64,000 nt of DNA from positions 33,562-97,561 of IMG/VR virus record IMGVR_UViG_3300012003_000002; one strand, 5' to 3'. Under the pieces are notes generated by a model that did no database searches, was not told the origin of the DNA, and was given only the letters and a program-made list of their open reading frames with translations. The DNA comes from a virus. Positions 31,563 to 35,006 of this stretch are shown here, in pieces; position 1 is the stretch's first letter, and each line of letters opens with the position of its first letter. A program made the translations under genes and the position numbers.

Positions 31563-32066
31563 AACTCTATAATAACTTATTATGTGTGAGTATTTGAAAC
31601 AATTCTCTACAACTTTTACATTTAATTGTGAATCATATAATAGGTTATAATAGGTTAATGTTGTCAATTAAGTTTTAATACATTATAATGAAAGTGGTGA
31701 GGAAATAAGCTTTATATTATAATTGCTAAAACTTTAATTGGTGACTAATATTAAAGAGAATATGATTAGGATTAAAACTTTAATGTTATTGTTGTGAGTA
31801 CAGGTGTGAACTCTCAAATTAATAGTGGTTAAAGCGGAAGGTTACACATTAAATTGTCCGAAGTGTTTAACAGATTGACCACTATTATTTTATTATAACT
31901 TGTTGATAGTGAGGTCTTTGTTACTTCATCACCACCAATTATCACACTTCAACTACAACTCCAGTTACACAACTATAAATATAGTTATAGCTTTTACATC
32001 AATAATATAACCAATTCAATTAAGTTATTCTACATATATTTACACACAATTTATTAAAATTATACT

Positions 32067-33052
32067 ATGAAATATATCTCAAAATGTCCAATAACTAATA
32101 AAATAGTAGGTATGTGGACAATAATTCCAGGTTTCTACAACTTAAAAGGTCAATTTATAAGATATGAAATAGGTTATTATTGTAATTATAATAAAACCAT
32201 ACACAAATCTAGAAAAGATTATTTAAATTGTAAACATTGTAAACAAAACAAATTATTAACTGACTAAATAACAAAATTATGAAAAACTTTGACAAATTTA
32301 TTACCTATATATCATTTAAGTTATATGGTAAACGACAACCAATGTGGACATTTCAATAACTAAATTATAATATTATGTCAACATATTCAAATGAACCACA
32401 ACAAAACAATTGGGAAATATGGTTTGTAACATCCGTTATATTATTCATATCAACATTGATCTGGGGATCAATTGATATAGAACGACCAGTTATATATGAC
32501 GGACTATTATTTGCAATATTTATAAATTTAATATATTGTATTTATAAAGGTTTTCAAAAATAATAATTATGAAACAATTCATAATCAAATCAATAATATC
32601 TTTATTTATAATAACAATTGTTATTTATATATTTAGAGATATTATAATATAAATTCTCAATGACTATTGTAAAAGATATTGGTCAAGCCCAATCAATTTG
32701 TAGTTCAATGAAGAATAATTACAATAGTTTTTAAAATAAAAAGGGAAGAGGTGCATGGTCATTAAATGCTGGTTGGTAGAGAACGAGGTTCTTCCCTTTA
32801 ATAATATTAATTATTACCATATGTGTGGAGTGAAACTCTCCACTAATTAACGATTCTTTTTAGAATAAACCATATGGTAATGATTTTTTTAAATAACAAA
32901 CTAAATATATAATTATGAATAGAAATAAAATAGAAAGATATATTCTTTCAAAAGAACATTCAAAACATCCTAATTTAATATTTGGTTTAACAGTATTTTG
33001 TGTCATTATAATTATGACCTCAATATTATTTTATATTAAATATTCAATTTAA
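32067..33052 (+). CDS. Very small early ORFs (32067-32267 Cys-containing, 32279-32359, 32375-32563 two-TM, 32569-32652 TM, 32915-33052 TM)
   Basis: Each has an A-rich leader ending ATTATG or similar; three encode hydrophobic peptides. Confidence 0.45.
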
Positions 33053-33178
33053 ACAAAACAACACTAACATAGACAGAAGTCTTTGAAGAAGGGTAGCGTA
33101 TAATAAGTCTTAGTTTGCTACAAAACTAACCACTGGAATTAATAATTAGTTCTAGTGGTTTTATAATAAAATAAATAA

Positions 33179-33538
33179 GGGGTCGACTGGTTTTGACAGG
33201 TAGATAATAAATATATAATTCAGCCAGAGAGATAACTGTAAACTAAGGTGAATATTTTTTAAACGGCAAAAATCAACAAACAGCCAATATGGCTAAAGTT
33301 TTTTCTCTAATCAATTCTGATATAACTGAATTTGAATTAGCAGCATAGTTTAAAACGGTCAGTAAGTTAATTCGCGATGTGCATTAATCCTGAACCAAAC
33401 TCAAACTATAGAGTAATTTAGTATTGGTCCACATTTAGTAGTTTTTAAAGGACAATAAAGATTAAATTCTACAATAAGCTGTATAAAATTATATATTAAA
33501 AACTATTTTGGACCCGAGTTCGATTCTCGGCGACTCCA
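33179..33538 (+). ncRNA. ssrA: tmRNA
   Basis: 5' GGGGTCGACTGGTTTTGACAGG; 3' CCGAG-TTCGATT-CTCGG-CGACTCC-A; G3:U70 acceptor pair; tag ORF 33265-33348 ending ELAA-stop. Confidence 0.93.
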
Positions 33539-33718
33539 CAGCTGTTATCTGAATTAGCACTAGGACGATAACTATCATTGGTGGAAGCTAATCACTTGAA
33601 TGATCCTGTAAGTTGTGACCAGTACACGTAAAAAGACACTTACCAGTTAGAATAGGTGTGAACGGTTTTTCCCGTCAAGTTCTAACATTTTTTAAATATA
33701 AATAATTAAAGATAATAC

Positions 33719-33960
33719 AGTCCGTGTAAACTGTAAATAAATAACATTTAGTGCAAATGTCTAGCACCCTTATCAGTAGATGTAACGAATTAAGCAGCGT
33801 GTTGCGCATAAGTAAAACAACTTAATTTGGGGAAATGTAGATTGACAACCTACAGTGTTATTTTATAAAAATTACTATTTAAGCTAGTTTATAAACAGCA
33901 ACACTTAGCGATTGCGCAGCAATAGTGAAAAAGGTGTGATTCCTTATTTAAATACGGACT
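33719..33960 (+). ncRNA. Candidate orphan structured RNA (~240 nt)
   Basis: Ends pair (AGTCCGTGT/ATACGGACT); several internal helices and a possible pseudoknot; GC-enriched; no ORF. Confidence 0.45.
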
Positions 33961-34042
33961 AACGTCCAAATAATATTAATAAATTAAAAATAACTCTAAA
34001 TTAATATAAAGAGTATGACTCAATAATAATTATATAATGTTG

Positions 34043-34088
34043 CTAGGCTTGTAACCTAGAAATGGAGGTTTAAATCCTCGTGCTACAA
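34043..34088 (+). pseudogene. 3' part of a tRNA-Thr(UGU)-like structure (anticodon arm and T arm only)
   Basis: CTAGG-CTTGTAA-CCTAG and GAGG-TTTAAAT-CCTC; no D arm or matching acceptor 5' strand. Confidence 0.45.
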
Positions 34089-34325
34089 CTCAGAAATAGT
34101 AAGCATTAACATAATAATATAATTATTGAAAAGGTTAAATATTACATAAGTACAACTAAAATCCGATATTCTTAAATGAATACAAAACCTATTGTGGAAT
34201 AATAGTAAGCAATAGTTATAAATATATAAAATCAAAAAATGTTGCTAGGGGAAAACGCTTACGACCTTACTATCTGTGAATGTCAGATCAACATTTTATT
34301 ACAAAACAAACTAAATATTAAAATT

Positions 34326-34715
34326 ATGAACACAGAAAAATTTACAACAGTAACTTACACATTAGAAAATGGAACTAAAATTGTGCAACCTATTAATAAA
34401 CAAGCTTTTGTTAATGAAAAAGGTCGTCTTAGAACAGAAGCTGAAATGCATAAATTATTTGCAGAAACCGCTTGGGATAAAAGAGCTGTCTCATACACTA
34501 TTGATTCTGAAACAAATGAATCATTATCAACAGATAAAGAACTTCACTTCACTAAAAATGAAAGAAAAGTAGCTAAAAGAGATTATAGAGAATTTCAAAA
34601 ATCTAATTCATTAGGTTTCAAACATTCTTTAAAAGCTTTTCAAAAATTATTTGTTGATTCATTAACAAATAATAGAAGAATTAGAATGAATATCGGTAAT
34701 ATAATTTTACAATAA
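34326..34715 (+). CDS. Hypothetical early protein
   Basis: Likely start ATG 34326 after AACAAACTAAATATTAAAATT; the upstream extension in the ORF track overlaps an RNA hairpin. Confidence 0.6.
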   Translation: MNTEKFTTVTYTLENGTKIVQPINKQAFVNEKGRLRTEAEMHKLFAETAWDKRAVSYTIDSETNESLSTDKELHFTKNERKVAKRDYREFQKSNSLGFKHSLKAFQKLFVDSLTNNRRIRMNIGNIILQ

Positions 34716-35006
34716 TAAAATCTTAAATTAAATCACCTAATCCTTAAAATGGCTAGGAATTAATTATTATAATCAAACAGTTACTCCCTTTACGTTTATT
34801 TATAAACAACCAGGTCATCACTTTAATAATATTATAATAACAAAATTTGTAAGAGTTAATTATTATTTAGAATATTAAAATTATTTACTGCTAGTAAACT
34901 TATTAGAAGAAGACACTAAATACTACAATTTTAATACAATAAATAAATAATTTTCGCCACTTACTTAGGTGATTTAATTAAACTAACAAACTAAAACTAA
35001 AAAATT

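Follow-up and report, generated by a model that had tools for sequence, protein, structure and literature searches.

The start of the rightward arm in a crAss-like phage, at 31.1–35.0 kb of the 64,000-nucleotide (nt) stretch of viral DNA analyzed here (the window; positions 33,562 to 97,561 of IMG/VR record IMGVR_UViG_3300012003_000002), encompasses a series of segments that an initial annotation had described as non-coding and as closed, each, by a helix of 9–15 base pairs (bp). Of the reported helices, roughly half are both real and conserved, and one of them is a new RNA motif; the rest are indistinguishable from chance in AT-rich DNA. We favor, with roughly even confidence, the interpretation of the stretch as a mixed RNA island in which cassette punctuation is combined with a few new RNA genes. 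Under this interpretation, the stretch would be a plus-strand mosaic of small open reading frame (ORF) cassettes, a transfer-messenger RNA (tmRNA) with a structured trailer, and self-contained RNA modules, each closed by a helix. The modules are not one family with one job. The originally proposed array of non-coding RNAs (ncRNAs) survives in the sense that several genuine plus-strand RNA structures are present, but the set is mixed, consisting of terminator-like hairpins, a junction RNA, a tRNA-like remnant, and lineage-specific or chance helices. Neither is the stretch purely non-coding, as five small ORFs and the tmRNA are located inside it.

The virus record is 97,561 bp long, with a GC content of about 23%. 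The best match of its capsid protein, at 60.5% identity, is g091 of Cellulophaga phage phi14:2, followed by gut and Flavobacterium crAss-like phages, and we assign the virus to a phi14:2-like environmental lineage of the crAss-like phages, which are among the most abundant phages known. The terminase, portal, capsid, and tail genes occupy the minus strand up to about 31.0 kb, and the DNA polymerase and helicase genes are on the plus strand beyond that point, which places 31.1–35.0 kb at the beginning of the rightward, replicative arm. The rightward genes of phi14:2 form the early class and are transcribed by an injected virion RNA polymerase, and two long intergenic stretches near the start of that arm yield abundant, persistent early rightward RNAs that have no assigned function; an early promoter motif was not found (10.1101/2020.03.07.982082). 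By homology, the rightward arm of the phage studied here is probably early as well.

The reported elements, numbered in order, and the tmRNA with its trailer are listed below; z is the folding z-score of the plus strand against dinucleotide shuffles, and all these values are inflated, the segments having been chosen for a closing helix.

Element 1, 31557-31664, plus strand: conserved three-way-junction RNA, single copy per genome (z -3.1 for 31572-31648)
Element 1 P1 core, 31572-31586 pairing with 31634-31648, plus strand: 15 bp
Element 1 outer helix, 31561-31570 pairing with 31650-31659, plus strand
Element 1 P2, 31588-31594 pairing with 31601-31607, plus strand
Element 2, 31746-31788, plus strand: 11-bp hairpin domain, leader or ncRNA 3′ of a promoter (z -2.1)
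Element 3, 31820-31887, plus strand: 13-bp closed domain, then TTTTAT; lineage-specific (z -3.4)
Element 4, 32740-32799, plus strand: shares an insertion of about 230 nt with element 5 (z -1.6)
Element 5, 32810-32884, plus strand: three-way junction with a T-run after it, the next ATG (32915) being 30 nt away (z -5.7)
Element 6, 33127-33161, plus strand: 15-bp hairpin and U4-5; 3′ hairpin of the cassette of a 45-amino-acid (aa) ORF, 17 nt 5′ of the tmRNA (z -7.0)
tmRNA, 33179-33541, plus strand: matches Rfam RF00023 at 66.3 bits (gathering score 47); also called by ARAGORN
tmRNA trailer RNA, 33714-33875, plus strand: conserved and structured; in L004, L009, and L001, directly adjacent to the 3′ end of the tmRNA
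Element 7, 34025-34127, plus strand: tRNA-like anticodon and T arms enclosed by an outer clamp of 11 bp (z -2.5)
Element 8, 34236-34297, plus strand: domain closed by 9 bp, ending 28 nt ahead of the ATG at 34326 (z -1.1)
Element 9, 34726-34979, plus strand: 254-nt spacer with a 15-bp closing clamp, up to 18 bp by reading flanking bases (z -3.6)
Element 9 inner clamp, 34763-34773 pairing with 34831-34841: 11 bp around a variable 60 nt
Element 10, 37350-37406, plus strand: clamped hairpin, then T6 (z -4.3)
Element 11, 47658-47714, plus strand: z -0.4 (+0.8 on the minus strand); no support

Conserved helices and modular turnover

The elements were compared with about 11 distinct IMG/VR contigs and one short metagenome contig (handles such as L001), collected via three DNA patterns and two proteins encoded in the flanks; with the element 1 arm, block 1 of element 9, and the trailer as patterns, IMG/VR returned the same 10 or so contigs and L124. 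All 11 segments fold in the way originally described. Judging by sequence comparison, elements 1, 2, 6, 9, and 10 are real plus-strand RNA helices, kept via compensatory and G:U-only changes, and the comparison confirms elements 1, 6, and 10 most clearly. Conservation of the element 7 helix is partly supported, four elements have no homologue, and, among the two similar elements that had been noted further on, element 10 has a conserved clamp but element 11 is without support. The assignment to the plus strand comes from invariant G:U pairs and from A-to-G and C-to-U changes that maintain pairing on this strand alone.

Element 1 has a clamp of about 25 bp in total, with two bulges. Across 10 sequences, 96.6% of the cells in the P1 core are paired, 6 of the 15 pairs show compensatory changes, and one G:U pair is invariant; none of 500 shuffles reached the P1 score, and slid controls gave at most two compensatory pairs. 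In P2, compensatory change affects five of the seven pairs. The junction retains, in the relatives, single-stranded AAYCUUUGAAA and AGUAAAUC, motifs that are degenerate in the copy of the studied phage; a search for pairing between the two yielded no consistent register. The third arm varies from 0 to 60 nt among the relatives. The covariance model of element 1, denoted R1, scored 90 bits on the plus strand against 21 bits for the reverse strand. It detected exactly one copy in each genome, phi14:2 having no match, and no Rfam family corresponds to this element. In L124, the motif is found 3′ of the 45-aa ORF, not of the 124-aa gene, and therefore element 1 is a portable unit rather than an appendage of one gene, which suggests an RNA, or a factor binding site, independent of any single neighbor gene.

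For element 6, 98.3% of the cells are paired across nine sequences, with two compensatory pairs and one invariant U:G, and UUUU(U)AU follows in every relative. In L015, this hairpin comes after the 45-aa ORF and is followed by an ORF, with no tmRNA found there, so that element 6 belongs to the 45-aa ORF cassette and not to the tmRNA. Element 10 shows 98% identity in L004 and L008; in L006, its clamp is kept by one inserted compensatory base pair around an unrelated interior. Elements 6 and 10 look like terminator-type hairpins. Element 2 is present in four relatives, being identical in L001 and L002, whereas the L009 copy has two wobble changes and a compensatory replacement of G-C by U-A; in L009, L003, and L012, it is nested within a larger clamp.

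The clamp arms of element 9 are identical in 11 relatives, the sole change being a C to U in L003 and L017 that gives a G:U pair on the plus strand only. Given that the arms never vary, something appears to read their sequence as well as their pairing. The inner helix includes two compensated pairs, and two internal blocks of 35–55 nt are invariant, with an unalignable interior between them. The 5′ arm (34726-34740) contains AUCACCU, which is identical to the 16S 3′ end, so that the complement of this sequence in the 3′ arm resembles a Shine-Dalgarno sequence; the match is only 7 nt long and the complement is about 35 nt from the ATG, and we treat it as a probable coincidence.

The structured trailer of the tmRNA, which has no Rfam family, contains a 9-bp helix that clamps an insert ranging from 10 to 230 nt among the relatives; the clamp is kept in L004 by four compensatory pairs, and a small hairpin is compensated in L009. 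The tmRNA and the trailer are separated here by a hairpin-rich module of 173 nt (33541-33713), which is inserted precisely where the tmRNA ends and is found, among the relatives, in L003 only. The tag peptide of the tmRNA, according to ARAGORN, ends in LAA. In L011 (2171-2280), the tmRNA gene seems to be partly deleted, lacking an equivalent of 33169-33418. ARAGORN calls no tmRNA in L003, L009, and L012 despite blastn similarity, and Rfam at the gathering threshold missed the tmRNAs of all relatives, tRNA matches alone having passed this threshold.

Element 7 is 99% identical in L003, whereas L006 keeps the clamp and the anticodon-like hairpin and has the T-arm part replaced. A full tRNA was rejected for this element: the acceptor and D arms do not form, the Rfam tRNA score of 20.1 bits falls short of the gathering score (29), and ARAGORN reports no tRNA there. 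The first 11 nt of element 8, AATGTTGCTAGG, are shared with element 7; element 8 is non-coding because the protein family encoded downstream is 124–129 aa long.

Overall, the region is a mosaic in which blocks of 85–100% identity to the relatives (blastn) alternate with unalignable segments. The points where similarity starts or stops (31587/31631, 31747, 31790, 31819, 31885, 32879-32890, 34298-34309, 34760/34829, and 34982) coincide with helix ends, because, as we read it, self-folding modules are gained, lost, and swapped whole without harm to their neighbors. Interiors are swapped within conserved clamps in elements 1, 7, and 10 and in the tmRNA trailer. As originally noted, the elements differ in sequence and are not repeats: k-mer and mismatch scans detected no motif repeated among them, and they behave as discrete modules. 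Elements 4 and 5 (32740-32884) have no blastn match in the relatives and no match in IMG/VR, and element 3 has no homologue in the relatives, the 14 seed-length IMG/VR matches (16–19 nt) being taken as chance. Unrelated ORFs of 185–279 aa, without a Pfam match, are inserted in relatives beside the tmRNA at module boundaries (L001 9044-9730; L003 8680-9372; L006 2994-3833; L012 4957-5514).

Proposed roles and the contribution of chance

Punctuation would be provided by elements 6 and 10 and probably by elements 5 and 3, each with a U-run after the helix and 17–60 nt before the next gene. The most likely function of these elements would be to terminate or weaken transcription and to shield the 3′ end of the mRNA that precedes them. 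The terminator consensus scan does not call elements 6, 10, and 5, the stems of which are AU-rich or branched. Element 1 and the tmRNA trailer would behave like RNA genes or specific binding sites, element 9 would be a clamped spacer that is read partly by its sequence, and the remaining elements would be a tRNA-like relic or lineage-specific or chance pieces. Processing by RNase III is plausible, on the basis of helix length, for the longest clamps only; element 1 is the sole element with a helix of classical RNase III length. What the data demonstrate is the helices with their strand, conservation, and turnover as modules, whereas the timing of transcription, termination, processing, and any action in trans are inferred. 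Two further kinds of sites accompany the modules:

31661-31689, plus strand: sigma-70-like promoter TTGTCA-17-TATAAT directly after element 1, with 11/12 consensus matches
32895-32905, 34305-34315, 34985-34995: exact AACAAACTAAA, the only three copies in 64 kb, each close behind a clamped structure and 20–22 nt upstream of an early ATG

All seven aligned relatives retain the -35 box of this promoter, its spacing, and a TAnnAT -10 box, and we infer that the promoter would drive a leader or ncRNA of about 370 nt that is free of ORFs and holds elements 2 and 3. The helix ends at 32884, 34297, and 34979 are 30, 28, and 27 nt from the next ATG, respectively, and each of these spacers contains the exact AACAAACTAAA. 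Looser AACTAAAT boxes are found 5′ of many other early ORFs and also of phi14:2 gp010.

Most segments are more stable than their shuffles (down to z -7.0), but elements 4, 8, and 11 do not beat them, and thermodynamics alone neither establishes nor refutes the helix claim. When G:U pairs are allowed, the region has 59 stems of at least 10 bp, compared to 48 ± 8 in shuffles of the region; the excess is restricted to long stems (17 vs 7.8 for at least 12 bp and 6 vs 1.3 for at least 14 bp), and stems of 9–12 bp, as a class, are at the chance expectation in this DNA. The reported predominance of G:U among the helix mismatches on the plus strand is largely a selection effect: a strand-symmetric search of the region gives 11 G:T vs 9 A:C. 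Beyond the tmRNA, no family exceeds the gathering score in an Rfam scan of 30900-35100; with Rfam 15 and E values up to 10, just weak sub-gathering matches appear (tRNA at 20.1 bits, two miRNA families, and the permuted-tmRNA model), and the ribozyme families in Rfam yield no match at E up to 10.

Several observations weigh against the mixed-island interpretation. Per 2 kb, the region has no more long stems than the rest of the window, and the mean of a sliding 100-nt z-scan is -0.65 compared to -0.07 in a coding control, a weak signal, although the scan is insensitive here because it misses the tmRNA itself, scored at about +1. The comparison set is small, about 11 relatives, and elements 3, 4, 5, and 8 have no homologue in any of them, that is, are lineage-specific. 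The clamp of element 9 provides no covariation evidence because its arms are invariant, and the blocks of this element resemble sigma-70 promoters on both strands, which would point to a reading at the DNA level. Branched interiors of 30–100 nt are atypical of intrinsic terminators and ought to disappear if only the stem mattered. Public RNA runs yielded no transcripts: none is listed with 31000-35100, and four "RNA-Seq" runs, flagged as probably DNA, had only fragments of the relatives' contigs, which cannot show transcripts.

The observations on stem numbers, stem density, elements that do not beat shuffles or are absent from all relatives, and mismatches that are balanced under symmetric criteria would all fit another explanation, namely, that most of the helices are chance inverted repeats in DNA of 23% GC or functionless decaying relics, with nothing real except the tmRNA and a few terminators. 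We consider this explanation very improbable. It is already refuted for elements 1, 6, and 10 and the trailer, the covariation and conservation of elements 1 and 6 being well above shuffled and slid controls; the clamp of element 9 is kept in 11 relatives while the interior between its blocks is unalignable; and element 5 has a z-score of -5.7 (-5.2 on the minus strand).

Alternative readings and known systems

The arms of element 9, invariant in 11 relatives, would fit a reading at the DNA level, under which the conserved arms in general would be promoters, operators, or crossover sites for cassette exchange and the helices a by-product of AT-rich near-palindromes of the TTATAA type. In L003, L012, and L013, a near-copy of the element 9 3′ arm lies about 357 nt downstream, with an inserted 111-aa ORF between the copies. 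TATAAT-like hexamers occur in the arms of element 1 and the inner helix of element 9, conserved sigma-70-like sites abut or overlap elements 1, 6, and 9 (TTAATA-17-TATAAT overlaps element 6), and the breakpoints described above coincide with arms. However, the compensatory changes in elements 1 and 6 and the trailer imply selection for pairing rather than for a fixed sequence, and an invariant G:U pair would correspond to an A:C mismatch in the complementary DNA strand, contrary to what a cruciform or a hairpin of the template strand would require. Furthermore, the elements have no common motif, each being single copy, and neither an integrase nor a reverse transcriptase is encoded. On balance, we regard the DNA-level reading as quite improbable. 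Specific candidates were rejected as well. Integron attC cassettes are not indicated, given that no PF00589 match exists in the genome and the arm ends of element 1 do not fit RYYYAAC/GTTRRRY, and neither is a retron msr/msd, which would have an adjacent reverse transcriptase, the genome having no PF00078 match. Hairpin promoters of the N4 type, used by a virion RNA polymerase, have 5–7 bp, a 3-nt loop on the template strand, and a shared sequence, whereas the helices here are 9–25 bp long, mostly with large interiors and no shared motif, and their G:U pairs hold only on the non-template (RNA) strand.

The replacement of interiors within kept clamps also bears on the possibility that the stretch is a polycistronic array of trans-acting small RNAs (decoys, aptamers, or sponges) that is cut at the clamps by host RNase III, the interiors being in an arms race with host factors. 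This scenario, which we judge fairly unlikely, is compatible with the clamp of about 25 bp and the single-stranded junction motifs that element 1 keeps in the relatives, along with its other position in L124, with the mimicry of the tRNA anticodon and T arms in the interior of element 7, and with the abundance and stability of the phi14:2 intergenic RNAs. Conversely, most clamps, at 9–15 bp, are short for RNase III, the junction motifs are degenerate in the studied phage, and no discrete transcripts are known; several elements have U-runs and a fixed distance to the next start codon, which fits a role in cis. A phage-encoded RNase III was searched for in the genome, and none was found.

The early genes of phage T7 are separated by RNase III processing hairpins, R0.3 to R1.3, the stems of which measure roughly 20 bp or longer; these hairpins contain a characteristic internal loop, and their cleavage is proven. 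The likeness to the present case consists in structured RNA between the cistrons of an early polycistronic transcript, and the plus-strand helices could similarly leave protective hairpins at mRNA ends. Unlike the T7 sites, the clamps here, as putative cleavage sites, are mostly 9–15 bp long, with large interiors and several U-runs. The tRNA region of phage T4 produces stable species 1 and 2 RNAs, defined transcripts that are co-transcribed with tRNAs. These are, as here, structured RNAs of unknown function in an RNA-gene cluster beside tRNA-type genes, presumably released by processing, but the cluster studied here, one of predicted RNAs, is interleaved with ORFs.

Another related system is the promoter-early stem-loop (PeSL) cassettes known from T4-type phages (Arbiol et al. 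2010, PMC2839356; Comeau et al. 2014, PMC4122927). As in the present region, where the promoters are putative, composite stem-loop and promoter elements lie between small early ORFs in a hyperplastic region, and the breakpoints between related phages are at the elements; in the studied phage, blastn similarity begins and stops where helices end. PeSLs, however, are many near-identical copies of one short motif per genome, whereas the elements of the studied phage are all different and single copy, several are branched and 60–250 nt long, and what some of them clamp is variable RNA, not ORFs. Each arm sequence occurs just once in the 97.6-kb genome, and R1 has one copy. Direct coupling to an early promoter would be limited to the sigma-70-like sites at element 6 and after element 1, the other elements being without such a site.

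The early long non-coding RNAs (lncRNAs) of phi14:2 belong to the same lineage and occupy the same niche at the head of the early arm, with a tmRNA gene in the corresponding part (Drobysheva et al., 10.1101/2020.03.07.982082). They differ in that the non-coding stretch L016 3119-3291 is present and elements 1 and 9 are absent in phi14:2. Homologues of L016 3119-3291 were identified in L003 (6752-6953), L015 (2196-2364), and L011 (174-285) and none in the studied genome; in L003 and L015, the homologue sits in the leader segment that holds element 3 here. In L015, a tRNA-Ser gene lies 3′ of this homologue.

A bolder proposal, distinctly unlikely in our estimate, is that the clamps are scaffolds for exchangeable RNA payloads, with interiors that turn over fast (the tRNA-arm mimic, the junction motif, and unrelated hairpins). 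The units would be freed from an abundant early transcript as stable small RNAs that titrate a host nuclease, a defense sensor, or a tRNA-targeting enzyme, and lineages would trade payloads by recombination at the clamps. If this were the case, the island would be the RNA counterpart of the islands of protein anti-defense genes.

Returning to the mixed RNA island, the kinds of elements that it comprises, structured punctuation and ncRNAs in phage early regions, are already known, and as it stands, the finding is not exceptional. The new aspects are at least two covariation-supported structures outside Rfam (element 1 and the tmRNA trailer) and terminator-like clamped hairpins that appear to separate the gene cassettes of this lineage. 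This lineage keeps a low-coding, RNA-rich early region, which offers concrete targets for asking whether phage early regions carry exchangeable RNA modules.

Gene layout and further features of the window

The genes and signals among which the elements are interspersed are the following.

31160-31534, plus strand: predicted first early gene, 124 aa, with a GC-rich intrinsic terminator 3′ of it
31538-31557, plus strand: GC-rich intrinsic terminator (terminator scan); L005 has an equivalent hairpin and T-run
32067-32267, 32375-32563, 32569-32652, 32915-33052, plus strand: small ORFs
34326-34715, plus strand: 129-aa gene, the start of which is set by a family of 307 proteins of 124–129 aa

The terminator at 31538-31557 is a stable hairpin followed directly by a U-run, as expected of an intrinsic terminator. 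The 124-aa gene is followed by an ORF-free stretch of 510 nt, the tmRNA by one of about 780 nt, and the 129-aa gene by a spacer of 290 nt. Plus-strand ORFs cover 40% of the stretch here and 44–66% in the relatives, so that low coding density is a conserved trait. Searches of Pfam and PHROGs with the small ORFs of the stretch and the ORFs inserted in relatives returned no match. The 129-aa protein has 307 homologues, several of them encoded on contigs of about 100 kb, and no match among 50,697 phage records. Similarity of the region to cultured phages is confined to the 5′ part of the tmRNA.

The 27-codon ORF at 32569-32652, just 5′ of the insertion with elements 4 and 5, encodes a very hydrophobic peptide, and L002 and L011 show conservation of its DNA sequence. 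A tRNA gene at 47733-47805 scores 56.6 bits with the Rfam tRNA model and is identified by ARAGORN as tRNA-Asn with the unusual anticodon ATT. The gene at 4016-8500, for a tail or virion protein of 1494 aa, has a GC content of 37–40%, compared to about 23% in the genome, which suggests recent acquisition or a strong compositional constraint.

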